Assembly: GCA_964583985.1 (NCBI GenBank)
Contig: CAZOYD010000072.1
Location: forward strand, 1-15,878
Direction: 5' to 3'
DNA length: 15,878 nt
From: an uncultured archaeon
GTDB lineage: Archaea; Asgardarchaeota; Lokiarchaeia; Sigyniarchaeales; SOKP01
Shown here piece by piece: positions 936 to 15,787 of this stretch (position 1 is the stretch's first letter; every line of letters starts with the position of its first letter). The translations under genes and the position numbers were made by a program. Under the pieces are notes generated by a model. It was not told the origin of the DNA. It made no database searches and worked only from the letters and a program-made list of their open reading frames with translations.

Positions 936-2813
936 TTGAGGAGGAGATGTATAATTAAGGTAGAACAATTATTAGAAGATGGAAATAAGCTCTTCGAAGA
1001 AGGAAAGCTTGAAGATGCTTTAAAAATCTTTGAAAAGGTTGTTAAAAAAGATAAAAATTATAGTTTAGGTTGGTTAAATAAAGGTAAAGTTTTAGTAGAA
1101 TTAGGAAAGTATGAGGACGCAAGGAATGCTTTAGAAGAGGGTTTAAAGCGAGATCCTAAAGTCCTGAAAATTAATCATTATCTAGGTAGGGTATATGAAG
1201 GTCTTGGAGATTATTCGAAGGCACTTGATTACTATGAAAAATCCATTAACCATGATAAAGACGATGTAGATTCATGGTATCATGAAGGTAATATTCATTA
1301 CGTGCTTGGGAAACTAGAAAATTCGTTGAAATGTTATGAAACTGCTTTCAGTATCTCTCAAAACTTTAAAGATATAAATGAAAAGTTGGAAAAAATAAGG
1401 AGTTTATTAAAGAAAAAAGAATCTGATTCGGCACTTTCTAACAAACTCATAGAAGATGGTAAAGCATTAAAAGAAAAGAATCAAACTTCCGAAGCTATTG
1501 AGAAATTTGAGAAAGCTGTAAAAATTAATAGAAACAATGCTGATGCCTGGAATGAACTTGGAGAGTTGTATCTCGAACTTAAAAAGTATGACCAAGCAAG
1601 AGAAAAGTTTAAAGAGGCTTTAATGGCTGATCCGAATCTAGTGAAGGCACAGCAAAATTTATCCTTAACTCTCGAACAAATTAAAGAGATTAAACAGAAA
1701 GAAGAAGAAGCAATAAAAAGCAAAATGCCTCAATTTGAACAAGAGGAGGAAGATGATGCTTACATTTGCGATAATTGTGGTGCACGTGTTGATCCAAATA
1801 GAAATATATGCATGAGATGTGGAGCTTTTAATAATCCAATCAAGAAATACCTTGCAAAGAAGGCTTTTAAAGAGACAAGTTTCTATTTACTTAGGCAAAT
1901 TGAGAAACCGTCATTTTCTGGTATGAGTTCTGATGGCCCATTTAATGAAGGTTTAAAATTATTAGAGCAAATGGAGTTAGATAAAGCAATTAATTATTAT
2001 AAAAACGTGCTTAAATCAAATCTAAATAATGAAGTTCTATGGAATAATCTGGGCGTAGCATACATGGGTTTAAAAAACCGAAAAGAAGCATTAAAATGTT
2101 ATAATAAAGCTTTAGAAATAAATCCTAATTATTACATAGGGCTATACAACAAAGGAGCTGTTTATTATGTATGTAGGCAGAACATAGACGCGATTAAGAT
2201 TTTTGATGCGGCATTAGAATTAAATCCCAATTGCGGTGAAGCATTTAATGATCGGATATTAGCTTATGAAAATTTTTCTGAGAAAGATTTCGCGAAATTA
2301 AGTGATTCTGAGCATAAAGAACTAAGAAAAAGGTTAGACTTGTTTAATATAGGAGGTGTAAATCACCTTAGAGGAATGATGAATTTAAGTTCTGCACTCG
2401 TTGATCTTGGAAACGGCAAGGATGCGATACTAGGGCATTATAAGATTATTGTTAAAAATAGTAGACAAATAAAAAATTTGTTTGAGGAAGCTCAAAAATT
2501 TGAAGCCAAGGGACAAATAAAACTCGCAATTAACTATTTGGATAAGGCCTTGAGCTTAAATCCTCAAGATGCTGTTGTCTGGGTAGGTAAAGGACTTGCT
2601 TTGAGTCGGCTGAACATGGTTAAAGAAGCTGCAGATTGTTTTACTCAAGCAACAACTTTTGATCCTAATTATGAATTAGCATGGCTTTATCGTGGAGTCT
2701 CAGTAGCATTTCTAGAGCAATATGACTTAACCTATAAATGCCTTGAAGAGGTTTTAAGAATAAACCCTTTCAATAAAGAAGCAATTGAAGCGAAAAAGAG
2801 TATATTTCAATAA
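936..2813 (+). CDS. Tetratricopeptide repeat protein with a central zinc ribbon
   Basis: Many TPR motifs (WLNKGKVLVELGKYEDA, AWNELGELYLELKKYDQA, LWNNLGVAYMGLKNRKEALKCYNKALEINP, VWVGKGLALSRL). CDNC-x10-CMRC zinc ribbon near 1767-1820. The start codon is uncertain. Confidence 0.92.
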   Translation: MRRRCIIKVEQLLEDGNKLFEEGKLEDALKIFEKVVKKDKNYSLGWLNKGKVLVELGKYEDARNALEEGLKRDPKVLKINHYLGRVYEGLGDYSKALDYYEKSINHDKDDVDSWYHEGNIHYVLGKLENSLKCYETAFSISQNFKDINEKLEKIRSLLKKKESDSALSNKLIEDGKALKEKNQTSEAIEKFEKAVKINRNNADAWNELGELYLELKKYDQAREKFKEALMADPNLVKAQQNLSLTLEQIKEIKQKEEEAIKSKMPQFEQEEEDDAYICDNCGARVDPNRNICMRCGAFNNPIKKYLAKKAFKETSFYLLRQIEKPSFSGMSSDGPFNEGLKLLEQMELDKAINYYKNVLKSNLNNEVLWNNLGVAYMGLKNRKEALKCYNKALEINPNYYIGLYNKGAVYYVCRQNIDAIKIFDAALELNPNCGEAFNDRILAYENFSEKDFAKLSDSEHKELRKRLDLFNIGGVNHLRGMMNLSSALVDLGNGKDAILGHYKIIVKNSRQIKNLFEEAQKFEAKGQIKLAINYLDKALSLNPQDAVVWVGKGLALSRLNMVKEAADCFTQATTFDPNYELAWLYRGVSVAFLEQYDLTYKCLEEVLRINPFNKEAIEAKKSIFQ

Positions 2814-2930
2814 AACAACTCAAATTTTGGCTCGCAGTTATGCTTCGGAGATGATGCGAATGCTGAGAATTAGTATAGATAATAGAACTTATAAGCATGA
2901 ACTAACTGAAAAAGATCTTGAAGCTCTAGC

Positions 2931-2964
2931 ATTGGTGAAATATTTTAAGAAATATTATTCATCT
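2931..2964 (+). repeat. Direct repeat R1, copy b (34 bp)
   Basis: ATTGGTGAAATATTTTAAGAAATATTATTCATCT; 31/34 identical to 507-540. Confidence 0.8.
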
Positions 2965-2968
2965 CGGT

Positions 2969-3020
2969 GATTTTTGTTTACTATTTCTAATATTGTGTTA
3001 TAAGGGGAAATTTTTAATAC
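2969..3020 (+). repeat. Direct repeat R2, copy a (52 bp; diverged copy of the chlI promoter region)
   Basis: GATTTTTGTTTACTATTTCTAATATTGTGTTATAAGGGGAAATTTTTAATAC aligns ungapped to 14672-14723 at 45/52 positions. Confidence 0.85.
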
Positions 3021-3044
3021 AAATGAAGTGTTTCCCAACTTGTC

Positions 3045-3092
3045 ATGGTAAAAAGGATTAATTTCCCATTTACTTCTTATAGTCTTCCTTAA
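3045..3092 (+). pseudogene. 5' relic of a ChlI-family AAA+ gene
   Basis: MVKRINFPFTS, then IV after a 1-nt shift, resembles the (F/Y)PF(T/S)xIxGQ start of ChlI proteins (compare MRKFLFPFSAIL at 14744). It sits at nearly the same distance behind the duplicated promoter. Confidence 0.65.
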
Positions 3093-3150
3093 TGGTGAAT
3101 AGAACCCAGAAGCATTAAGTTTTTCTATCAAAAAATACAAGATTATTTCA

Positions 3151-6117
3151 TTAATAGAATTGATATTCTTTAATTATTTGAATTGGTTCTGTTTCTTGTA
3201 ATACCTGTAAACCAATCTCCCTAATTTTATCTAAATCTGGTTGAATGAGTTTATATATCTCATCTATTATTATATTTTTCTTTTCTACATAACTTTTAGC
3301 TATTACAGAGCATTGTTTTGATAATTCCGCAATTTTTATTTGTTCTTTAGAGTTTTTAAATTTTGGAATGTTAAAATACAATGGTCGTTTATGATGATGA
3401 CGAGTATCACTTATAATTTTTACACTTTTTCTTAATTCTGGAATATTTAGCATTCCACATAAATAGTAAGCCTCAAGTTTATTATTGGTGCCATAGTAAT
3501 ATATAGTGGAATCAATAAAGATCCTACTTTCTGGATCCTCAACCACGGCAGCCATTAATGTCTTAGCATTTGGAAAAACTATTTTATAGGGGAATTGTTG
3601 ATTTTTTCTGACTTTTCCATTGACACATAATTTATTTCTATAATTGATACCTATCTCGAAAAGATCTTTTTTCAATGTCTCTTGATATATCGATTTCAAA
3701 TTATTCCAATGTTTTTTAGCAAATGGTCCAAGGTTTTTTATATCATAGACTAGGTTTTGATCTAATGGTAAAAAGATGGTGTATGGTTCAATATGAAATG
3801 GATACAATTGTCGAGATAAAGTTGCTTTAAATAGCGTATTTGTCTCAACTCGAACGTTTTTATAGTATTGTTTCTTCCACTTCCCTTTAGCTTGAGGAGA
3901 AATCCAAGGATTTATCACAGAAACCTTACCATCTTGAATCGTATTATTTACTTCACAATACAATAAGGATTTTGGAATTAAATCAGCTCCTTGAATAAAA
4001 TCATTAAAATAGTCAGATAAATGGCATGGTAATAATTTGTCTTTCTTTTCGCTTTTAATCAGTTTTTTCACAAAATATTTTCCTTTTGGCTTTTCTTGAA
4101 AATATACATACGGTTCTAGATGATTTATTTCAAGCTCTTCCATTGTTTCTGAATCTAGAATATGGCTTGTAACTGGATATTTATCTAAAACAGGATTAGT
4201 CTGGTTTTGATCATAATTAGCAAAGATACAACAGCAATCAATGTTAAAGACTAGGTCATTGAATTCATAGAAACTAATATTATTAAATATCTCAAATCTC
4301 CTCGCTTTTTCATTTTGAGATGAAACTAATAACGAGCGTGGCATAACAAATGCAATTTTCCCTTTTCCATTGGATCTTAAATATAATTCGGGTACTTTAT
4401 AGAGAAAAACTACTGCCTCCTCTATGTTTGTTATATTTTGAGCAGGAGGTTTGATATCAAATTGACTTGATATTCTTTTCATTGATTTCTTTAATTTTGT
4501 GTCAGCATCTTTATAGGTCAACCATGGAGGATTTGTGATGATGAGATTCATCTTTTTTTGCATTAACAAAATCCTAATCCCTACTAAATTATTCAATATA
4601 TACAACCAAATATGGTCCTTATCTTCTTTTTTTAATTCATACAACTGGTTAAAAAAATCATAAACGGATTTTATTTCAAAATTCTTGAGTTCTGAAAAAT
4701 TTTCACTCAATTCATTATGTGCGTTTAGAGCTGCTTGCCATGCTTCATCAAAATCATTAAAATCTTCCCAAACATTATATAATGATTTGATTAATATTTG
4801 AAATGTTTCTATATTGTTAGAAGTGAGGGCGTAACCTGGAATTTTCAATTCCTTTTCATCATCAATAAGATCAACACAAAAGGCATAATAACTCCCTAAA
4901 TTAAAATCTGCATATTCAGATATTTCTAAAGGATCGATAGAATTACATAAAAAGATATTGATCGAGATTTTTTCAATCCAGTCTTTTCTATTCTTAAAAT
5001 ACAAAAGACAATTTGCTTTTGTCGTAAGTACTGCAATAGGATTAATATCAAAACCAAAAACATTATTGATTGCATCAAACCACTCCTCAGGAGGTTCTTG
5101 ATCATGAGGAAACTCAAAGTGAGAATCAATCTTTTTATAAGTCTCAATAAGAAACGTTCCAGAACCACATGAAGAATCTAACACTCGATCCCTTAATTCA
5201 TAACTATTTTCAACCATTTTCTTACAAAGAGATTCTGGAGTGTAGTATTCACCTAATCGATGTCTTACACCTGCGATTATCATTTCTTGATAAATCGTAC
5301 GGAATATATCTGTCGCCTTTAATTGGACAGTTTTCATGATTTCAAAATAATCATCGCATAAGCTTTGCACGTTGATCACCCATCGGAAAAAATCATAATG
5401 AAAGAGAGAAATCCCAAGTAATTCGAAATAATTTTCCAAATCCTTAAAATATTCTCGCGAGTAACGTTCAGGATTAATAAACTCCTTGTATAGAATCAAT
5501 TTTAATAGCATGCTTAAATATGAATGCCTTAAAAAGAGTTCTCTTCCGACTTCATCATCATGATATGCTAACCTAAAATGTTTTTTCCATTGCTGAAAGC
5601 AGACTGTTTTTTCTCCCGAATGGTCATTAAAATGCTGTTCAAGGCGACCATATGATAGAATGTAAAGTGGCGAATTAACTCCAAATAAAATCGCAAATTG
5701 TTCAGAATCCAGTGAACTTGGTTTGAAAAGACATTCTAAAAGGGATTGTATTGATTTCTCATCAATATCCCGTCTATTTCTCAAAAAGAGAGAGTTGTTA
5801 TAATACCAAATTTTGGATTCTGAAATTACAATAAGTAAGGATGCTTGTTTCCCTTTTGTTTGAGTGTATTCATCAAGATATTGCTTTCCTTTTGAATTTA
5901 CCCAGGATTGAAGATCTTTATCAGAAATTTTAAATTTAAAATCGATTATAACATCTCCAATAAGACAATCTGGTTTCCCACTTAATATTCTGAGTTGAGC
6001 TTGGTAATTTATCCCAAGATTATCAAAAAGACTATCAAACCAATGTTCAATTTCAAACTCGTTTTTTGCCCTCTTAACTGGACTTAGGTCAATCTGAAGA
6101 TCTTTTATCAATAGCAA
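3151..6117 (-). CDS. Fused restriction-modification enzyme (Type IIG-like): N-terminal PD-(D/E)xK nuclease, N6-adenine methyltransferase and target-recognition region
   Basis: GKPDCLIGDVIIDFK (PD...DxK); GEYYTPE (motif X); VLDSSCGSGTFL (motif I, SAM binding); GFDINPIAV; IITNPPW (motif IV); FVMPRSLL. TTG start preceded by GAGGG. Confidence 0.9.
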   Translation of the reverse strand: MLLIKDLQIDLSPVKRAKNEFEIEHWFDSLFDNLGINYQAQLRILSGKPDCLIGDVIIDFKFKISDKDLQSWVNSKGKQYLDEYTQTKGKQASLLIVISESKIWYYNNSLFLRNRRDIDEKSIQSLLECLFKPSSLDSEQFAILFGVNSPLYILSYGRLEQHFNDHSGEKTVCFQQWKKHFRLAYHDDEVGRELFLRHSYLSMLLKLILYKEFINPERYSREYFKDLENYFELLGISLFHYDFFRWVINVQSLCDDYFEIMKTVQLKATDIFRTIYQEMIIAGVRHRLGEYYTPESLCKKMVENSYELRDRVLDSSCGSGTFLIETYKKIDSHFEFPHDQEPPEEWFDAINNVFGFDINPIAVLTTKANCLLYFKNRKDWIEKISINIFLCNSIDPLEISEYADFNLGSYYAFCVDLIDDEKELKIPGYALTSNNIETFQILIKSLYNVWEDFNDFDEAWQAALNAHNELSENFSELKNFEIKSVYDFFNQLYELKKEDKDHIWLYILNNLVGIRILLMQKKMNLIITNPPWLTYKDADTKLKKSMKRISSQFDIKPPAQNITNIEEAVVFLYKVPELYLRSNGKGKIAFVMPRSLLVSSQNEKARRFEIFNNISFYEFNDLVFNIDCCCIFANYDQNQTNPVLDKYPVTSHILDSETMEELEINHLEPYVYFQEKPKGKYFVKKLIKSEKKDKLLPCHLSDYFNDFIQGADLIPKSLLYCEVNNTIQDGKVSVINPWISPQAKGKWKKQYYKNVRVETNTLFKATLSRQLYPFHIEPYTIFLPLDQNLVYDIKNLGPFAKKHWNNLKSIYQETLKKDLFEIGINYRNKLCVNGKVRKNQQFPYKIVFPNAKTLMAAVVEDPESRIFIDSTIYYYGTNNKLEAYYLCGMLNIPELRKSVKIISDTRHHHKRPLYFNIPKFKNSKEQIKIAELSKQCSVIAKSYVEKKNIIIDEIYKLIQPDLDKIREIGLQVLQETEPIQIIKEYQFY

Positions 6118-6125
6118 GTTAATCC

Positions 6126-6179
6126 CTCTAATATTAGAGTATAATTTGGTTGTTTAATAATTTAGAAATCTCGATTTCT
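6126..6179. promoter_or_regulatory. Two palindromes in the divergent RM/hypothetical intergenic region
   Basis: CTCTAATATTAGAG (6126-6139, perfect, overlapping the RM ribosome-binding site) and AGAAATC-tc-GATTTCT (6164-6179). Confidence 0.4.
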
Positions 6180-6229
6180 CTTTTGATTTTTTAATAATCT
6201 ACCTAATTAATTAAATAAATTGGTGTATT

Positions 6230-6766
6230 ATGCCAGTGACTAAAGATCATTATTTAGGAAAAGTTAAAGAACATACTCTCAAAGAAGCGTTATCAAAAAT
6301 ATGCCGAGATATGGGAGAAGATGAAGATATAAATATTGTATTTTTGCAAAAAGACTGTGATATTATTATAACTCATACTACTATTCAAATATCTGATCCA
6401 AATTATCTGGCTGTTCTGGTTGAAGAACCGTTTTCGATGGATTTATTAAACAAAATAAGAACTGATTTTAGGGGTTTTCTCCATTATTATCAAAAGCATA
6501 TTAAAATCATTCCAAATGATGACATATGCTATATTAAATATCCTAAAATTATCAGATTATACGAGATCGATGAAGATATTTTTGAGATGCTTGAAAATGA
6601 ACATGATATACCCGATTCTTATTTAGATGATTATCAATGGGAAGAACTACTGAATTCTGAATTATGGAAGAAAGCTCAGACTCAAATAGCTCGGGAAATC
6701 ATTGCTTATAAATTTAAAAATGAAATATCAGTAGATCCAATAATGGATGCAATAGAATCAATCTAA
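6230..6766 (+). CDS. Hypothetical protein with an acidic C-terminal half
   Basis: 178-aa ORF with ATG start preceded by GGTG. It is divergent from the RM gene and overlaps the convergent gene by 4 bp. No recognised motif. Confidence 0.75.
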   Translation: MPVTKDHYLGKVKEHTLKEALSKICRDMGEDEDINIVFLQKDCDIIITHTTIQISDPNYLAVLVEEPFSMDLLNKIRTDFRGFLHYYQKHIKIIPNDDICYIKYPKIIRLYEIDEDIFEMLENEHDIPDSYLDDYQWEELLNSELWKKAQTQIAREIIAYKFKNEISVDPIMDAIESI

Positions 6767-9738
6767 AAATCTTCCCGGCTCATGACCTCATCAACGGTTA
6801 TATCAATTCTGTGAGCTCTCTTTTCCTCTCTATCAGATCTACCTTTCTTTAGTTCCTTTCTTTTATTCATAACAGGTCTTATTATTATCACAACCACCAA
6901 ATATGCAAGAAAACCCATGATTCCTAACATTATCAATCCCATGAATAGGGGTAAAAAATCAAATGGCCCTACACCTCCATTATCAATAACGTCATCATAT
7001 AAGACTTGACCGCTTGGATGGAAGCCATCCTCTAGAATAAATTCGAGATAATACTCATCATTCTTACTAGGCTCAAAGACTAAGGAAAACGTCGAATATT
7101 CTTGAAAATCCTTCCTTGTAAACTCTTCAATTCTCACAGCCAAACTATTCCCTTGAATATAAGCTTTGAGTGTCGATTCGGTTGCTGGCCGGAACCCAGA
7201 GGAAAATTCGTACGATATGTTAGTGGAATATCGCACAGAGTTTCCACTTACAATCTTTTCCATACCATCAGAATAAAATCTAAATTGTGTGGAAAAAGAT
7301 AGTGGTACTTGCCCTAATAACTGAATCCCCTCATATACCACTAAATTACCCGATACTTCGGGATAACAATGTGAGCTTTCGGGGATAAGCAGATTAACTT
7401 CATATGAATTATCAAGTTTCTTTTCAAGGGGGATGGTACCGAGGGCAATGCTGTCAAAGATTACCGACACTGACTCTCCAAAATTGGTTCGAATAATATT
7501 CCGAAAGGAGGTTGAAATCGTGTTTATGCTCTCTAAAAGTAGATCAGACTCACAAGTATGGTCAAATTTCAACTCATCGTTGCTAGCCATCTCAACCAAC
7601 CAAAAGAAAGCTTCTTGGCATACTCGGTTCTTCATGGGAGTGAGATAAAATTCGTTCAATTCAAGATTGTAAAGTAAATCTAAAAGAGCATCTGTTCGTG
7701 CGAAATCAAATTCAAAATCAAGCTCCAATAATTCCGCAATTTTGAATCCGTAATAAAGGGATTGAAGGTTGTCATAATGCAAGCCATCCCTTAGAAAATT
7801 TTCAATCTTATCTATATTCACATTTAGCAAGTCTATCGCATCCAAGACATACAGCATATAATACGTGTCTTCAATTTTTTGCATCGCTGTCGAACTATTG
7901 GAAGACAGGTAATAGATCATTGTATCCGTTTCAACCACTCCCTGCAATACGAATTCATAAAAGATATTCCAACTAAAAGGAAGATCTTTCAAATCCCCTA
8001 AATCCAAGAAATCAGCAAGCAATTCCAGACATTTAATTGCGTAATAACTATACTTGAGGTGATGAAGCTTTACTTGAAAGTCTTCATAAAATATTGAAAA
8101 GCCATTATACGGTAAGAATGCCCCATAATTGGCATGATTTAATTTCTTTATCTGGGATTCTAATATCTCCACTAAGAGGTTTGAAAGATCCTGTTCAATA
8201 GCAAAATCATCCAACTTGTAGAGCTTGAGCATCGCATCCAGTGCAAAATAAGTGGTTTCATGACTGATCAGGTGATTAGTCTCATTCATCAATTCGCTTG
8301 GAAGACAGTAATATTCGATAGGACCTGAGCGAAACCAGGTACGCCCAAGATTGATCCCGGGAGTAGCGTAAAATCCAAGATATCCCGGATCAGTTAAATA
8401 ACTTCTTTTTATCCAATCATAAAAATCTGAAAAACTAAGTTCAGGCACCCTAACTTCCATGAAAAAAGCATTCACGATGGAATGCATCAACTCCAAAGAC
8501 ATGTAGTCTTGAGATAAAGGAGAAAATCCTGCACCACATCTATAATAATTCAAGGATAGGGCGAGGTCATCCTTTTCTTGTTCCGTGAGCCTTATAAGAT
8601 CTCCCGACTCCTTAAGAGCTCGTACGATTTGGAACGTGTCCATGAGCTCATGATATGGAGTCACCGAGCACACATTCCAACTCCCCAACTCGTTACGATT
8701 TTGAAACACGAAATCTAATACGGCTTCTCGATTAAACTCAGTAAATCCCGTCACGTCTGCTAACTCGACTCCAAGAGCACTGGCAAGCACATTTAGGGGG
8801 GAACAATATAAATCGATCCTCCACGTATCATCTACATCGGAATATAACTGCGAAAGAAACGAATGAAAATCACCAATTTGTATAGTTCCCACGTATCCAA
8901 GCATCTCCAAGCTCTTGATGGAATAATATGAGGAAAGGAGGTTCGGTTCCATCAAATCCAACGAATCGAAAGAAATACTTCGATCATTAAAAAATCCACC
9001 AGAACTTTGTTGCAAGCTATTAATATTAGAAACCATTACTGAAATTTCAGCTGAATAACTCCTCCAATCATCTAAAAGCAAGTCAAGCGTCATGAGAGCA
9101 AAATACGTGTTATCCATTGTAGCATTCTTGAGATCTGGATGCAAGTTAGGGGTGAAGGGCTGTCCCATGAAGCCATCATCCTCTGGATTGAAACAACTCC
9201 AAATGAACTCTATCGTGCCTTGACGATCGATGAGATCAACTGCCCCAAGTAAATCCAATGAAAGCACACCGTAACATGTCGTTTCGAGGAGAGAATTCAA
9301 TTGGAAATAATATTGAGAATTGTTCGCGTCAAGGTATCGCAATGAATAATCGTCTCGGAAAAATTGCGAAACCTCATCATGATGGTTCATTATATAATTT
9401 ATAACTTCAGTTGAATTTATCATATCTATCTTTCCAATAGCGTCCAGCACGAACAAGGCATGATACGTTGCTTGGAGTGAGTTCCTGTAATATTGAGGGA
9501 AATAACCTAAAGTATTAAAATCAGCTAATTTTCGATCAAACATCTCTCTGAGCTTATCTTCGTGACTGATTGAGGATGATAATGGTGAATCATCATCTTG
9601 CTTTAAGAGTGAATCTATTTCTAACGTCTTTCTTTCATTCATTTCAATTTGAGAAATATTTACTGGAATTAAAAGCCCAATTACTAATATCAGCAAGAAG
9701 ATTCCTGCTTTTTTATACACACAGCCGTTTTTCATCAT
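6763..9738 (-). CDS. Membrane-anchored prenyltransferase/squalene-oxidase-repeat (alpha/alpha toroid) protein
   Basis: N-terminal hydrophobic signal (IFLLILVIGLLIPV). Repeats such as IEFIWSCFNPEDDGF...ATMDNTYFALMTLDLL, INSLQQSSGGF...NLLSSYYSIKSLEMLG and VLDFVFQNRNELGSW. A beta-rich region is followed by a C-terminal TM helix and a basic tail. Confidence 0.85.
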   Translation of the reverse strand: MMKNGCVYKKAGIFLLILVIGLLIPVNISQIEMNERKTLEIDSLLKQDDDSPLSSSISHEDKLREMFDRKLADFNTLGYFPQYYRNSLQATYHALFVLDAIGKIDMINSTEVINYIMNHHDEVSQFFRDDYSLRYLDANNSQYYFQLNSLLETTCYGVLSLDLLGAVDLIDRQGTIEFIWSCFNPEDDGFMGQPFTPNLHPDLKNATMDNTYFALMTLDLLLDDWRSYSAEISVMVSNINSLQQSSGGFFNDRSISFDSLDLMEPNLLSSYYSIKSLEMLGYVGTIQIGDFHSFLSQLYSDVDDTWRIDLYCSPLNVLASALGVELADVTGFTEFNREAVLDFVFQNRNELGSWNVCSVTPYHELMDTFQIVRALKESGDLIRLTEQEKDDLALSLNYYRCGAGFSPLSQDYMSLELMHSIVNAFFMEVRVPELSFSDFYDWIKRSYLTDPGYLGFYATPGINLGRTWFRSGPIEYYCLPSELMNETNHLISHETTYFALDAMLKLYKLDDFAIEQDLSNLLVEILESQIKKLNHANYGAFLPYNGFSIFYEDFQVKLHHLKYSYYAIKCLELLADFLDLGDLKDLPFSWNIFYEFVLQGVVETDTMIYYLSSNSSTAMQKIEDTYYMLYVLDAIDLLNVNIDKIENFLRDGLHYDNLQSLYYGFKIAELLELDFEFDFARTDALLDLLYNLELNEFYLTPMKNRVCQEAFFWLVEMASNDELKFDHTCESDLLLESINTISTSFRNIIRTNFGESVSVIFDSIALGTIPLEKKLDNSYEVNLLIPESSHCYPEVSGNLVVYEGIQLLGQVPLSFSTQFRFYSDGMEKIVSGNSVRYSTNISYEFSSGFRPATESTLKAYIQGNSLAVRIEEFTRKDFQEYSTFSLVFEPSKNDEYYLEFILEDGFHPSGQVLYDDVIDNGGVGPFDFLPLFMGLIMLGIMGFLAYLVVVIIIRPVMNKRKELKKGRSDREEKRAHRIDITVDEVMSREDF

Positions 9739-9744
9739 TAACCA

Positions 9745-9790
9745 AATGATTATATAATTAATTATCTCTTCAGAATGATTATATATAAAG
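9745..9790 (-). promoter_or_regulatory. Probable promoter with a 12-bp direct repeat
   Basis: AATGATTATATA at 9745-9756 and 9774-9785. The minus strand has TTTATATATA (TATA-like) upstream of the 9738 start. Confidence 0.3.
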
Positions 9791-10117
9791 GAAAAAGTGA
9801 CATAAAAGTCTAATATAAAAATAACTAGTAGTATAACCTATATTAGAAATTGGAAATGATAATAGTGTATGAATGTTGAATCTAGACTTGCAGGTATTTT
9901 AGTTTATTATTCTTCCCATATAACTTTCATTTTAGAAACTGTAAAATCAACCATGTAATTTTAGGTTTATAATACTAATTTTATGGAAGATGGTTCAATA
10001 AAAGCGGAATTAGATAGATTTCGACCATTTTTCTCCAATTTTCAAAAATAATATCATTTCCATTAGGAATTTTGAATCAACTCCTCAAAATTTATTACTA
10101 TAAATTAATACTCAATT

Positions 10118-10438
10118 TTAAAATATAATTTTCACAATTAATAAACTTATAATTGATATTGCAATGGACATTAAAATTTTTTTTATAACCCATTTTATAA
10201 CCCAATTCTTTCTTTTCTCCCACAAGTCATCCTTTTCTTTAATACTATTATCAAAAAAATCCATTCCTATTGGAAAACTAAAACCAACTTTTTTATAAGC
10301 ATCAATTAAGCATTTCCTATATTTTATTCTTCTTTTAAAAAACCCCCAATCTTTTGGTATAAATATCTTCTTGGTTGGTTGTGTTTTCAGATATTCCTTA
10401 ATAAAACTTAAAGATATTAATTTTGTAGTTAATTTCAT
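10118..10438 (-). CDS. Small basic hypothetical protein with a C-terminal TM helix
   Basis: The ORF track gives a TTG start at 10447; the ATG at 10438 is more likely. Ends ILMSIAISIISLLIVKIIF. Very AT-rich. Confidence 0.6.
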   Translation of the reverse strand: MKLTTKLISLSFIKEYLKTQPTKKIFIPKDWGFFKRRIKYRKCLIDAYKKVGFSFPIGMDFFDNSIKEKDDLWEKRKNWVIKWVIKKILMSIAISIISLLIVKIIF

Positions 10439-10463
10439 AATAAGCAATAAATTAATATTTTCC

Positions 10464-10631
10464 TTATTTTATTTTACTCTTTAATTCCTTGACATCTTCC
10501 ATAAGTTTGTAGATAATGCAATCTTCTGGTTTGTAATCATAAGAACTACATAAAATATTTTTAAGATTATTACAATCGCCTGCATACATACAAGGATGTC
10601 CTGTTACTAGTTTTGAACCCATTTTACTCAT
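10464..10631 (-). CDS. 55-aa Cys-rich microprotein (not in ORF track)
   Basis: MSKMGSKLVTGHPCMYAGDCNNLKNILCSSYDYKPEDCIIYKLMEDVKELKSKIK*, with C-x5-C-x7-C-x9-C. It is co-oriented with and just upstream of the 10118 ORF. Confidence 0.55.
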   Translation of the reverse strand: MSKMGSKLVTGHPCMYAGDCNNLKNILCSSYDYKPEDCIIYKLMEDVKELKSKIK

Positions 10632-11009
10632 TCATTATATTTATGGATAAATAGTATTATTCAATTATTAAACTAATTACACCCTATTAATTTTTCAATT
10701 TATTAAAAATTATAATGGTAGATTTGAAGAAAAATTGTATATGATTAACGAAAAAAAATTTATTATTCTCTTTACCTCTTTTAATTTCGATTTTTTCCTA
10801 TATATAACCTTCTTCAAATTCAGTTTGTATTTTTTTTATAATGAATAGGAAAATACAGCTGAGCAGATACCTATCCCGTGTGAAGTGGTAGTTGCTGAAA
10901 AGTTTGCTGCAATTTTAACAATTAATTTCATGACCAATTTTTCCACTTTTTTTATTTAAATAATTCTGCAAAAATAAAGAGTAATAACATTCATAATAGG
11001 TAAAATCAG

Positions 11010-14000
11010 ATGACAGAACCAATAAATCAAAATGCAATTTCGCTCTATTGTCCAGAATGCAACACCAAGATCCCCCCAGAGGTATTAGAAGATAACAATG
11101 ATCCAAACGTCGTGTGTTGCCCAAGTTGCGGTGTTATCATACCAATCGAGCCACAAATCGAGATCCCTGAAATAACTCAAGAAAAAAGTGAAGAAAGCCC
11201 TCAAATACAAGTACAACAACCATCACCGAGAAGAACAGCCAAGTGGCATCTCAAACTCCTTCTCTACTTTTCCATCCATGATTTGCTTTACAGCAAGGCA
11301 AGAGTCTTCACTAAACTCAAAAAGCAGAAACATTTTAATTCATTAACCATCAAGCGATATGCAAAACAACTCCGATCTAAATTACTAAAAAGTCCCATTT
11401 CGCGCCATTTAATGACAAAATTAACCCCGCGGGAGCAAAGGAGGCTCAAAAGAGCATATCACTTATTCAAGGAATCCTTAAGGGATGACACTCAGTTCAA
11501 AAAGTACCAGATTCAAGCCATTAAGAACGGAATTCAATTCATTTTCGACGTGATGAGGGGGGATTACGAGTTTGTCACTTTTTCTTCCACGGAAAAAGAA
11601 CTCATCATGGAACTCAAGGATAAGGTCAACCCATTCAAGGATATGAGGAGCAAGAGATCCCTTGGGCGGGAGTTTACCATCATTTTCGCGCGCATCATTC
11701 ACCAGTACCTCTTTGCGTTTTCACGAACCAATGAAACACTCACGCCTGAGGTAGTTAAAGAACTCGTGGATGGGATTATTGACCAGCTTAGAGCTCAAGA
11801 CAGTATCGAATGGATCGAATCACGGATCAACATCAAGTTAAACCGAAGAGAACGCTACAATTTTAAAGTGATTCGATTATGCCTGAACATTGATTGGATC
11901 CAGAGGGAATATTATTCGGATCTCCTCGTCTCGATTGTAGAAGCAGTAGACGCACTCATGAATGACATGACGAACGAGGTTCCCATAGGCGGGCTTAGTA
12001 GGATCCTCTCGCAAGGATTTGAAGAAAGTGAATTGTTTCGACTTGACAAGGCTTTCTCGAATAGAGAAAAGCTCAACATCTCCATCGTGCTCGCTCGAAT
12101 GATTCACGCTCATATCTCCGCGGCATTCCCGCCCCCAAGGCAAGCTAATCCGAATCAAAAATTACCCCCGGCGCTATGTAGAGATATCACCGCCACTATT
12201 CTCGAAGGACTGGTAGATCACCTCGATATCAACTCCGATTTTTTGTTGCGGTTTTATAACTTCTCGCTAGATAAATTTCATGCTGCACGGGAAAAATTAC
12301 TCGAAAAACTGGAAGGCGACATGATCTACCGCGCGAGCTTGAGAACCTTTCTTACGAACTTAATTGAAACCGTGTTCAAGCTAACCCGCCAGGAACCGAA
12401 GGAATCGAAACTTACACCTTTGGAATTAAGAATACGGGAGGATCTGGAGCTATATCCATATGAATGGAGGAATGAGAATGTGAAACTATTTGAGGATGAT
12501 AAGGAGATTAAGTCTGTAGAATCTGAACAAATCGGTCTTAGTTCAGGATTAAATTTGTATGATAATGATAATTCTCATTATTTGAATAATTCATCTTATT
12601 TACGCAGTGTTAGATTATTTGATATGATTAAGGCAGTAATTAAAAGTAAGATTGATGTCACTCAAAAGGTAATTTCTCAAAATCTGGGATTATCAAGAGA
12701 TCGTCTAGGAGAATACAAGGCTATAGCTAAAAGAAGTTTAAAAACATCAAACTCAGGTGAATATTATATAAGAGCAGATTTGTTAGATTCGATAGAATTT
12801 AATATATTGAACAATCCATTCTTTTCAGGACTATATGAGTGGCAAAAAAAATCAATTGTCAGAGTTATTGATAATTATAGAAGTTGGATAGTTTCTTTGA
12901 GCATCAAGTGTGCAGAATCAGATTGGAGGTATCGGGTCCATCGTCCAGGATCTTCGGATTTAGATATTGCACTTAGGAAGAAAATGTGGCTTTTTAGGGA
13001 ACTTAGAGCTTCGTATACTCAATCTGGAGAAAAAATAATAAGTGTTGAAGAATTGGGGATTGAGTTATACGGGCATACCAATAGAATCATAGAAGCTAGG
13101 TTTTATAACAAAGAAAGAGTAGGTGGTAAAGCAGATCTTTCAATTCAGTCATTTTTAATCGCATTATCATCTGTAATGATGTCAAGGATAATAAAAGATA
13201 GATCTCGGGCATTAAATGCATTATATGACTATGGGAAATCCATCTTTAATTTTGATTTAAAAAATCCTAATCATCGTCTAATTATGATACTTATATGCGC
13301 ATTCCGTTCAGAGCCAACTATCTCAGGTGTTTTCAATCAAGATTTATTATCATTAACAAGAATGTCTGATATAATCGCAAGTATCATTCAGCCAGAGACG
13401 TTCAGTAATAGAACATTAACTAATAAAATCTGGGGGGATTTTATGTTTTATGAAAATTCTATTGAAAAAATAAAACTTGCGGTTGAAAAATTGATATCTG
13501 ATTCAAACTTAAAAAGTTATACAATAGCATATTTAAATCATTATAAAGAAAATTTCGCAATAGAACGTGATTACAAATTTGAACGGAATATTATAATTGA
13601 TAGTAATTATAAAAATATTATTAAAAACAAAGCTCTGATTGAATATCTGTCAATGATCAAAGGTTCTAAAGGTTTCCTCGAAACTCTTTTATCTAAACAA
13701 GATAAAATTTGTGGGACAAGAATTTCTTCATTCAATAATAAAATGTCATATGTTTTATCTGAGGATAAAGGAAAATTCATATCGAAGATGTTAGGATCTA
13801 AAATAAAAGCATTTTCGCCACATCAAGCGCCATCCAGCTTAGGTTTTATAAATGATCTAATGGATTTCAGCCGTAATAATTTGTATGATAAGAAATATTT
13901 GTTAAGACATGGTTCTCCTGCTCATGAGATAGTCCTACCAAGTTTGGTTGAGATTAAGGATTGGGCAATTGCTTGTGAGGTTCCTGTTTATTTAAAACCT

Positions 14001-14327
14001 CAAGATTCTGAACTTGTTGCTTTAATTGGACATATCGACTTACTGGTGTTTGTTGATGGAGTATTATATGTATGCGATTACAAACCAGACCAGCAGTCTA
14101 AAACTACCCCGTCTTATAGTTTTATTAACTCGATCCCTCAGATTGCGACCTATGCCTTGGTTCTAAAGCAGATGTTTAATCTAAGGGAGTTAAAATGTGT
14201 GACATTTAACAAGAGAGGGGTATGGTTGTATGATCCATTAACCACGTTGAATGATATTACAATTTTCATAAAAAGGAATCGAGAATCAACAGTTCTTCCT
14301 TGGGTACCTTATTTAAGAGAATTTTAA
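11010..14327 (+). CDS. Modular protein: zinc ribbon, 3 helical repeats, 3 HTH-like modules and a C-terminal PD-(D/E)xK (RecB-like) nuclease
   Basis: CPEC...CPSC at the N-terminus. Nuclease motifs ACE990VPV, GHID1010LL, VCD1023YK1025P and Q1044IATY1048. Confidence 0.88.
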   Translation: MTEPINQNAISLYCPECNTKIPPEVLEDNNDPNVVCCPSCGVIIPIEPQIEIPEITQEKSEESPQIQVQQPSPRRTAKWHLKLLLYFSIHDLLYSKARVFTKLKKQKHFNSLTIKRYAKQLRSKLLKSPISRHLMTKLTPREQRRLKRAYHLFKESLRDDTQFKKYQIQAIKNGIQFIFDVMRGDYEFVTFSSTEKELIMELKDKVNPFKDMRSKRSLGREFTIIFARIIHQYLFAFSRTNETLTPEVVKELVDGIIDQLRAQDSIEWIESRINIKLNRRERYNFKVIRLCLNIDWIQREYYSDLLVSIVEAVDALMNDMTNEVPIGGLSRILSQGFEESELFRLDKAFSNREKLNISIVLARMIHAHISAAFPPPRQANPNQKLPPALCRDITATILEGLVDHLDINSDFLLRFYNFSLDKFHAAREKLLEKLEGDMIYRASLRTFLTNLIETVFKLTRQEPKESKLTPLELRIREDLELYPYEWRNENVKLFEDDKEIKSVESEQIGLSSGLNLYDNDNSHYLNNSSYLRSVRLFDMIKAVIKSKIDVTQKVISQNLGLSRDRLGEYKAIAKRSLKTSNSGEYYIRADLLDSIEFNILNNPFFSGLYEWQKKSIVRVIDNYRSWIVSLSIKCAESDWRYRVHRPGSSDLDIALRKKMWLFRELRASYTQSGEKIISVEELGIELYGHTNRIIEARFYNKERVGGKADLSIQSFLIALSSVMMSRIIKDRSRALNALYDYGKSIFNFDLKNPNHRLIMILICAFRSEPTISGVFNQDLLSLTRMSDIIASIIQPETFSNRTLTNKIWGDFMFYENSIEKIKLAVEKLISDSNLKSYTIAYLNHYKENFAIERDYKFERNIIIDSNYKNIIKNKALIEYLSMIKGSKGFLETLLSKQDKICGTRISSFNNKMSYVLSEDKGKFISKMLGSKIKAFSPHQAPSSLGFINDLMDFSRNNLYDKKYLLRHGSPAHEIVLPSLVEIKDWAIACEVPVYLKPQDSELVALIGHIDLLVFVDGVLYVCDYKPDQQSKTTPSYSFINSIPQIATYALVLKQMFNLRELKCVTFNKRGVWLYDPLTTLNDITIFIKRNRESTVLPWVPYLREF

Positions 14328-14330
14328 GAA

Positions 14331-14358
14331 TTCTTTATTTATTTCTTCTTCACTTTTG
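14331..14358 (+). terminator. T-rich terminator after the nuclease gene
   Basis: TTCTTTATTTATTTCTTCTTCACTTTT follows the stop at 14327. Confidence 0.35.
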
Positions 14359-14671
14359 GTTTAAATAATAATGATTCTTTACAGACTTTATCTCCAAAAG
14401 GTTTGAGTTTCTGCTGATTTAACTATTCTTTTATTTCAGTAGTAAAAGATATGGTTCGCAAGAAAAACAGCATATAATCTTCAATTATGCTATTATTTTT
14501 GGGATATTACTTGAATTTATACCATCAATACTAATTTCTTCAAGCAAGGAACTACTACTAGAAAGGATTACTTATTTCAATATATACATGACCTACTGAT
14601 AATTTTAACTCAGTCAAGACAAAATACTTATCAGCATAATAAATAAATTCTAAAAAGTATTGATTTTTTTG

Positions 14672-14723
14672 GATTTTTGATTAGTATTTCTAATAATTTG
14701 TTTTAAGGGGAAATTATTAAAAC
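14672..14723 (+). repeat. Direct repeat R2, copy b, containing the chlI BRE/TATA promoter
   Basis: 45/52 identical to 2969-3020. Purine-rich AAGGGGAAA plus TTATTAAA (14714-14721) lies about 23 nt before the ATG at 14744, consistent with a leaderless or short-leader transcript. Confidence 0.8.
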
Positions 14724-14743
14724 CAACAAGATTTTTCTTCATT

Positions 14744-15787
14744 ATGAGGAAATTTTTGTTTCCATTCTCAGCAATCCTCGGTCAAGATAAAATGAAAATG
14801 GGGCTCATTTTGAACGTAATCGACCCTCAAATTGGTGGAGTATTGCTAACTGGGCAACAAGGAACTGGAAAATCGACTGCTGTTCGAAGCTTAGTTGAAG
14901 TCATGCCTGAAATTGAAGTGGTTAAAGGATGCGTATTTTCTTGCGATCCGAATTTAGAATCCGAAGATTTATGCGATGAATGTCGCGAAAAGAGAAAAAA
15001 TGGTACAATTGAGCTTGAAAAGAGGAAAATGCGAATCACAGAGCTGCCCTTAGGAGTAACAGAAGATATGGTCTGCGGTGCGCTCTCTATTGATAAAGTC
15101 CTCACTGAAGGAATCCGAAGCCTTCATCCAGGGTTACTTGCTAAAGCAAATCGGGGCATATTATATGTAGATGAGATTAATTTACTCCAAGATCATATAG
15201 TTGATGTCTTATTAGACTCTGCCGCATCTGGAGTGAACATCATTGAACGTGAAGGAATTTCAGTGGCTCATCCCTCTCGATTTGTATTGGTCGGTAGTAT
15301 GAACCCCGAGGAAGGAGAACTCAGGCCGCAAATAGCGGATCGTCTTGGATTGGAGGTTAAAATTAAAGCACCTCGAGATCGTAAGCTACGAGCAGACATA
15401 ACTCGGAGTGTAATCGAGTTTGATGATAATCCCAAAGAATTTATCAAACCTTTCGAACATGAACAAGAATTATTAAAGACCAAGATTATAAAAGCGAGAC
15501 AAATTCTTAAAGATGTCGTAGTTCCGATATCTGTTTTTGAATTTGTCTCGGAGATTGTGAGTGAATTGGGCATTTTTTCTCAACGAGCAGACATAACTTT
15601 CATTCGATGTGCCCGTGCTCATGCAGCTTTGGAAGGAAGAAAAGAAATTGCTGAAGAAGATTTAAATGTCGCCCTCGATCTTGTTTTCGAGCATAGGATT
15701 CAATCACTTCATTATGAAATGACACCTGAAGAAGTTAAGGCTAAAATTACTGAGGTTTACGGAAAATTACAGAGAATTACTCTTTAA
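14744..15787 (+). CDS. chlI: Magnesium/cobalt chelatase ChlI/BchI-family AAA+ ATPase (probably the N-terminal part of a longer ChlD-like protein)
   Basis: FPFSAILGQ, Walker A GQQGTGKST, LPLGVTEDMVCG, PGLLAKANRGILYVDEINLL (Walker B), MNPEEGELRPQIADR. The same frame stays open after the TAA to the window end. The symbol denotes the family; chlorophyll function is not implied. Confidence 0.9.
   Translation: MRKFLFPFSAILGQDKMKMGLILNVIDPQIGGVLLTGQQGTGKSTAVRSLVEVMPEIEVVKGCVFSCDPNLESEDLCDECREKRKNGTIELEKRKMRITELPLGVTEDMVCGALSIDKVLTEGIRSLHPGLLAKANRGILYVDEINLLQDHIVDVLLDSAASGVNIIEREGISVAHPSRFVLVGSMNPEEGELRPQIADRLGLEVKIKAPRDRKLRADITRSVIEFDDNPKEFIKPFEHEQELLKTKIIKARQILKDVVVPISVFEFVSEIVSELGIFSQRADITFIRCARAHAALEGRKEIAEEDLNVALDLVFEHRIQSLHYEMTPEEVKAKITEVYGKLQRITL

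Follow-up and report, generated by a model that had tools for sequence, protein, structure and literature searches.

An 11.7-kb block in the start of a chlI gene of a Loki-type Asgard archaeon appears to have brought a replacement promoter and N-terminus

Islands that carry a spare promoter and repair the gene they enter are known in bacteria; a narrow literature search found no archaeal example. Phage 21 and e14, which reside in icd, restore the gene they enter with a second, diverged version of its end that they bring along; there it is the 3' end that is replaced, not the promoter and start. The cis-mobilizable elements (CIMEs), which have no integrase, keep their attachment (att) sites and depend on a related element for recombination. 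Here we describe a precisely mapped, population-polymorphic island, with no recombinase found, in a Loki-type Asgard archaeon. It lies in contig CAZOYD010000072.1, 15,878 nt long and analyzed whole as the window (contig C72 of G000, a 3.8-Mb metagenome-assembled genome, MAG, which is 100% complete by marker genes). The island, a block some 11.7 kb long, is lodged in the 5' end of a chlI/chlD-like gene (chlI below), which appears to owe its present promoter and first codons to the block.

One close counterpart is SXT/R391, which enters prfC at its 5' end and keeps the gene expressed by providing another promoter and N-terminal coding sequence (10.1101/2021.06.18.448947); the integration site in prfC has also been described (PMC2791158, PMC5812530). 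The locus studied here shares with SXT the entry into the 5' end of a conserved gene, the replacement promoter and N-terminus, and the displaced native start at the far junction. In contrast, SXT is a bacterial element of about 100 kb with its own tyrosine integrase, Xis, a conjugation apparatus and near-identical attP and attB, whereas the block has an archaeal host, measures 11.7 kb, contains no recombinase or transfer genes that we could find, and has a shared segment that is 80-85% identical. The dusA-specific elements, for example IMEVchUSA3, follow the same logic with a similar divergence of heads and are mobilisable rather than self-transmissible; they differ in having int and the directionality factor rdfN beside their att sites, for which the block offers no counterpart. 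The Asgard elements described in PMC11529989 carry their own integrases.

The features on which the argument turns are, in window coordinates:

2969 to 3034, plus strand: left repeat copy, the orphaned promoter and leader of native chlI, with the two promoter blocks that the genus conserves
3045 to 3092, plus strand: relic of a chlI start, native over 3045-3073 (MVKRINFPFT, codons 1-9 and two bases of codon 10) and continuing into the insert as SYSLP and a stop
3074 to 14769, no strand: inserted block of about 11,696 bp, with its left junction at 3073/3074 and its right junction at 14768-14770 on a mismatch map against L088
14672 to 14737, plus strand: right repeat copy, apparently a surrogate promoter and leader for chlI, carried at the insert's right end and upstream of the live gene; both conserved blocks are intact
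14744 to 14769, plus strand: surrogate head MRKFLFPFS (codons 1-8 and two bases of codon 9), in frame with the native body
14744 to 15787, plus strand: live chlI-type AAA+ ATPase, the first part of a chlI/chlD-like gene (NCBIfam BchI-ChlI, E 2.1e-118)

The original prediction, made from the letters of the window, rested on a 52-bp repeat at 2969-3020 and 14672-14723, and the 45/52 identity that it gave is correct. The ungapped match extends over 66 nt (2969-3034 against 14672-14737, 53/66 identical), and its alignment score lies 14.5 standard deviations (sd) above shuffled sequence, a value reached by none of 2000 shuffles. Each copy matches solely its partner across the 3.8-Mb genome, at E 2.7e-11; the next matches, at E of at least 0.002, are chance. 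The repeat is unique in the genome and therefore not a dispersed promoter motif, one of the outcomes that had been named as fatal to the prediction; we tried that reading and rejected it, both copies having returned the partner copy alone in whole-genome DNA searches. A genome-wide screen for further duplicated promoter-plus-start segments gave 88 hits, 77 of them gene starts, many of which resemble paralogous gene families.

The dead left start and the live right start are also as originally described, save that the left ATG is at 3045, not 3046. The dead start reads MVKRINFPFTSYSLP* and the live start at 14744 reads MRKFLFPFSAIL, the surrogate head being shorter than the native head by one codon. 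The likeness between the DNA of the two heads is no better than chance, and both are recognisable as chlI starts by their position and by an M-x-K...FPF pattern common across the genus. A weaker similarity said to extend upstream of the repeats finds no support by itself: the stretch from about 2876 to 2968 scores 1.3 sd above shuffles against 14566-14671, and 255 of 2000 shuffles reach that score. The homology backed by the data spans about 100 nt, not the longer stretch first proposed.

The left copy and codons 1-10 beside it are native, because L088, an uninserted metagenomic allele, and other uninserted relatives match them. Window positions 2828-3073 are 95% identical to L088, which runs unbroken into the chlI body, and 87-90% identical to G001 and G041. 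Over 2991-3073 the window equals L088 but for one base, and beyond 3073 it is unrelated (TTCTTATAG...). Close relatives begin chlI with MVKRINFPFTAILGQDK behind a promoter nearly identical to the left copy (G001 and G022, protein 93% identical to that of the window; G041, L088, L104 and L151). In the same six the site is empty, the native promoter, MVKRINFPFT and AILGQDK being unbroken and ...TTTCCCATTYAC joined to AGCAATCC..., and no relative examined has the block between promoter and chlI. The empty site that was to be sought in relatives is therefore present. The empty-site relatives carry the left-copy type, which upholds the proposal that a block entered the 5' end of chlI and supplied a replacement promoter and N-terminus from a diverged donor.

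The junctions were mapped by a three-way alignment and the mismatch map against L088. On the right side 34 mismatches fall in 14672-14771, the last at 14768, followed by one in 109 nt; beyond those 109 nt chlI shows its usual 5-16 mismatches per 100 nt against L088, with a mean of about 9. Because the left relic ends at 3073 and identity switches at 14768/14769, 3074-14769 is a clean insertion. The native sequence is split between ...CCCATTYAC and AGCAATCC..., with no base lost or duplicated. The comparison with uninserted relatives thus shows some 11.7 kb of DNA, acquired horizontally, that interrupts codon 10 of the chlI/chlD-like gene in a clean insertion, and the empty site and the clean insertion are both what is looked for in a site-specific integrative element. 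Neither repeat copy is a hybrid, which together with the junction positions places the exchange at the extreme 3' edge of the shared segment. The best identical runs, of 11 and 12 nt, sit in the promoter, away from the crossover. A crossover at the edge of homology is expected of site-specific exchange and not of general homologous recombination.

Direct repeats also flank restriction-modification (R-M) genes that have inserted with a long target duplication. The repeats here differ from that arrangement in being 15-20% diverged despite a very recent insertion: they are 80-85% identical, against 99.4% amino acid identity between inserted and uninserted bodies. It follows that the right copy arrived with the insert and did not arise by duplication of the target.

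Against the native copy and all sampled MVKR-clade promoters, the right promoter copy shows 80-85% identity. On a reading of the sequence it has the form expected where an element supplies a promoter and an in-frame N-terminus, with both conserved blocks kept and a full-length body behind them; the fused chlI/chlD-like frame is about 740 aa long in relatives. The live chlI is a mosaic of a foreign head on a native body, and the surrogate promoter would drive a live, intact gene. In an alignment of 12 genus relatives the promoter blocks stand upstream of chlI in all 12, a TATA-like ATTTNTAAT and, about 12 nt downstream, a AAGGGGAAAT-like block. The presence of both blocks in all of these relatives accounts for the good conservation of the promoter, which probably functions as such or as a regulator site. 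Purifying selection acting on a working promoter would explain the better preservation of the non-coding core relative to the variable first six codons. The original prediction had taken this conservation as a sign of a recombination or protein-binding site. It is not the recombination site: the junction lies in codon 10.

A donor for the right copy was sought in 41 genus genomes and in JGI metagenome contigs encoding chlI relatives, where the best promoters were only about 84-86% alike, and the degenerate pattern MRKFLFPFSAILGQ had no match in the GTDB species representatives. The right-terminal 100 nt or so of the block are a diverged form of the chlI promoter, leader and first nine codons, and come from that locus in an unsampled relative.

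The native head is found on bodies 99.4% identical to that of the window (P0125 and P0127, public assemblies) and on others 98.5-98.8% identical (P0001, P0130 and P0135). The surrogate head is carried by the window protein, by P0137 (99.7%, from an independent JGI contig) and by P0043, whose body is just 92.5% identical, is of the type with a 32-nt insert, and has nearest relatives that bear the native MVKR head. The native head on near-identical bodies and the surrogate head on P0043 together indicate that the insertion is recent and polymorphic and is present on at least two chlI backgrounds. Some of the cargo has also been assembled elsewhere: the methyltransferase (MTase), hyp178 and prenyl-fold genes occur together at 99.9-100% identity on one 12.5-kb JGI contig, and the MTase, 99.9% identical, on a Logan contig. 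The cargo at such identity in independent assemblies is therefore not an artefact of the G000 MAG.

The 32-nt insert is a separate matter. It lies at NPE|EGE in the chlI of G041 (L087, G041:C12 at about 13926-13957), L104, L151 and P0043, breaks the frame, and contains nested inverted repeats, CCGAA...TTCGG outside ATCCTA...TAGGAT. Judging by split matches at that site, G004, G005, G007, G009, G016 and G023 probably have it as well, and it looks like the mini-introns of tRNA type. The chlI allele in the window is without it.

Between its ends the block contains four sizeable genes and a gap, followed here from left to right:

3151 to 6117, minus strand: type IIG R-M enzyme, 988 aa, with an N6-adenine methylase core and an NPPW motif
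6230 to 6766, plus strand: 178-aa protein (hyp178), without a Pfam, NCBIfam, PADLOC or PHROGs family
6763 to 9738, minus strand: membrane-anchored protein, 991 aa, with a prenyltransferase-type alpha-alpha toroid (Pfam PF00432, E 6.2e-15)
9739 to 11009, no strand: AT-rich gap, 23% GC, with small open reading frames (ORFs) only (109 aa and 55 aa)
11010 to 14327, plus strand: protein of 1105 aa, with a Zn ribbon in its N-terminal part and a Cas4/RecB-type PD-(D/E)XK nuclease in its C-terminal part (Pfam PDDEXK_1, E 3.4e-6)

The insert ORFs were annotated with Pfam, NCBIfam, PADLOC and PHROGs. The 988-aa protein has the single polypeptide and N6-adenine methylase core of the type IIG class, with support from PADLOC REase_MTase_IIG (E 4.1e-50, residues 262-612) and Pfam N6_Mtase (9e-14) and Eco57I (1.2e-6); its N-terminal nuclease motif was read by eye. 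A 34%-identical homologue of hyp178 adjoins an MTase orthologue in G016:C5, and 40%-identical prenyl-fold homologues are divergently paired with the 1105-aa family in G002 and G004, and in G004 an MTase follows the pair. A search of Atlas gave no usable match for hyp178 or the N-terminal half of the 1105-aa protein, and genome_contigs held no relatives of the 1105-aa protein. A paralogue of the latter in the same genome (C22:499-3822, L069) shares residues 3-504 only, at 77% (83% in DNA over this N-terminal half), together with 60 nt upstream, and is unrelated beyond. Orthologues in G002 and G004 show the same pattern, 395 aa at 84% and no relationship after that, and the homology break coincides with a drop in GC near 12,500; the family appears to consist of a conserved N-terminal half and a swappable C-terminal half. 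Close homologues of the C-terminal half are very rare (three proteins). No tRNA gene or Rfam family was found in the window. The GC content of the insert, 32.7%, is mosaic within the insert and compares with 31.7% for the genome. Together, the homologues in congeners, the C22 paralogue and the GC content point to a donor within the genus. The cargo suggests a payload of defense and surface variation, in which the type IIG enzyme would help to stabilise the island.

In the stretch 2969-3150 the orphaned native promoter is directed at the convergent type IIG gene. Were it still active, it would send antisense RNA into the 3' end of that gene, and a T-rich stretch at about 3120-3126 might terminate the transcript.

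How the block entered is less certain than where. We hold with about even confidence that it is a non-autonomous site-specific island of the SXT/prfC or dusA-island type, whose recombinase acted in trans or has been lost. Such a block would be circular on entry and would integrate through a single reciprocal crossover, located in a short core, CCATT..., on the 3' edge of the shared segment, and the recombinase would be supplied in trans by an unbinned helper or would since have disappeared. The predicted joint of the circle is ...TTTCCATTCTC joined to TTCTTATAG...; neither it nor the empty-site joint occurs in the G000 assembly. The exact junction sequences can be used to seek excision circles, helpers or a new integration mechanism in metagenome reads. 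A Campbell-type integration is favored because the end of the insert carries a diverged copy of the sequence across the insertion point. Head and body are incongruent, MRKF being the head of the G000 body but also of one that is 92.5% identical, and this too speaks for it.

Several observations weigh against site-specific integration. The junction shares only CCATT(C), 5-6 nt, and the flanking bases differ. The left junction is known from one MAG contig alone. The cargo resembles chromosomal modules of congeners, and neither the 1105-aa protein nor the MTase has relatives in IMG/VR. Family searches of every insert ORF with the four collections above returned no integrase, transposase or Cas1 domain, in agreement with the original prediction that the block has no integrase; the element-encoded integrase of the SXT/prfC and dusA islands is thus missing here. 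Six-frame scans of the whole binned genome with PF00589, PF16795, PF00239 and PF01867 gave a single PF00589 tyrosine recombinase, away from this contig at C46:16375-16893, which we take as the putative housekeeping Xer enzyme, and no match to the other three models, which include those for serine recombinases, SSV-type integrases and Cas1. The 1.27-kb gap yielded no recombinase remnant in tblastx and blastn searches against the genome, and too little time seems to have passed since the event for an integrase to decay away. MAGs are usually without plasmids and viruses, so a helper may exist outside the bin.

The strongest competitor, which we regard as possible and rather doubtful, needs no mobile element: a double-strand break in codon 10 would have been mended with a linear piece of a congener's chromosome, its right end joined through short homology in the chlI 5' region and its left end by end-joining. 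The incoming type IIG enzyme might itself have made the break. Homology-facilitated illegitimate recombination, in which foreign DNA enters beside a homologous anchor without a site-specific recombinase, is the process that this supposes. It accounts well for a block without a recombinase in a binned genome with only one, and for its position in an interval between the upstream gene MPN316 and chlI that is a rearrangement hot spot with many gene relics. It also suits the chromosomal neighborhood of the prenyl-fold, 1105-aa family and MTase genes in G002 and G004, and the near-genomic GC content and the 83%-identical C22 paralogue fit a congeneric donor. However, donor polymorphisms would be expected in the chlI body, and none is seen, there being one mismatch in the 109 nt past the junction; the anchor here lacks the donor-type tract of homology-facilitated illegitimate recombination. 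The illegitimate and the homologous joint must moreover land on the same nucleotide, and the surrogate head on two bodies needs a second identical event or later spread by flanking homology.

It is unlikely that the block belongs to an Asgard family of islands that enter the chlI 5' end without a canonical integrase, either because their own nucleases (the 1105-aa Zn-ribbon/PD-(D/E)XK protein or the type IIG enzyme) make and resolve the break or because they use a recombinase of an unrecognised kind; both ways the spare promoter and start would let the target gene survive.

A distinctly unlikely account is that the island was imported ready-made from a conspecific or sister strain by homologous recombination in its flanks (on the left the relic of a gene termed p955 together with the promoter, and on the right the body of chlI), and that it was founded elsewhere, by either of the two mechanisms above. 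The polymorphism of the insertion among bodies at least 99.4% identical, the MRKF head on a second body and a left relic without extra decay are all consistent with such an import, but it leaves the first origin unexplained and is compatible with both mechanisms rather than an alternative to them. It probably explains part of the island's present distribution, not its origin.

That the arrangement is an assembly chimera, or a chance or dispersed promoter motif, we consider very improbable: the left junction is indeed seen in this contig alone, but the MRKF head on the G000 body recurs in the independent JGI contig (P0137), three cargo genes recur jointly on the 12.5-kb JGI contig, no k-mer is shared at 3073/3074 that could mislead an assembler, and the motif is unique in the genome.

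Least credible of all is that the 5' region of chlI was duplicated in tandem in situ, or that cargo replaced most of a tandem chlI paralogue (the latter also raised in the original prediction). This matches the direct-repeat topology only, whereas tandem chlI genes and a doubled promoter at the locus are absent from every genus relative searched, the copies differ more than G000 and G041 do there, and strains with 99.4%-identical bodies are without the surrogate head. One chlI stands at the locus in all genus relatives examined, extra matches being split pieces or 46-48% paralogues on other contigs.

The setting of the locus is itself variable. By synteny with G041 the contig order is C50, C72 and C94 (G000 C50:1-2942, C72, C94:1-3400). 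A gene for a 316-aa MPN-like protein (MPN316) lies directly upstream of chlI in most of the genus; in G041 and G023 a p218 and p955 pair lies between the two, of which G007, G016, G001 and G000 keep relics only. The protein p955 (L087 10411-13278) is a giant one in which HNH-like, Zn-ribbon and winged-helix motifs were read by eye. One further feature of the window belongs here:

2812 to 2967, plus strand: remnant of a p955-like gene, its final 54 codons (tblastn match to residues 902-955 of the 955-aa protein of G041, E 2.7e-7)

This relic is collinear with G001, G041 and L088. It is one of two supported p955 3'-end relics in the window, the other being at 502-540; a third possibly precedes the surrogate promoter, and no relic of p955 or MPN316 was detectable in the intergenic stretch 14328-14671. 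The MPN316-chlI interval measures at least 16.7 kb in G000, about 140 nt in G005 and 4 kb in G041, and its content differs among G005, G007, G016, G023, G041, G001, G022 and G000. By this comparison the interval is a rearrangement hot spot, with the 11.7-kb block its newest layer, and it is marked as a place where congeners swap defense and surface genes.

Smaller remains lie near the left end of the window. The final 11 codons (..NYF.KYYSS) of a p955-like gene make up a 34-nt repeat, found at 507-540 and at 2931-2964; for the p218 and p955 paralogues on G000 C37 and C137, the similarity is confined to roughly the first 290 aa. A 27-codon ORF at 544-660 is the C-terminal part of an antitoxin, with 93% DNA identity to a 67-aa gene of G022, and is followed by an 11-codon stub, KFVKGDIVVVN*, which resembles the start of a MazF/PemK toxin; the two look like a decayed toxin-antitoxin pair. 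At 667-795 what was once a surface protein's C-terminal anchor survives as an inverted relic, with 86% identity to the end of a 176-aa gene that in G022 sits just upstream of chlI.

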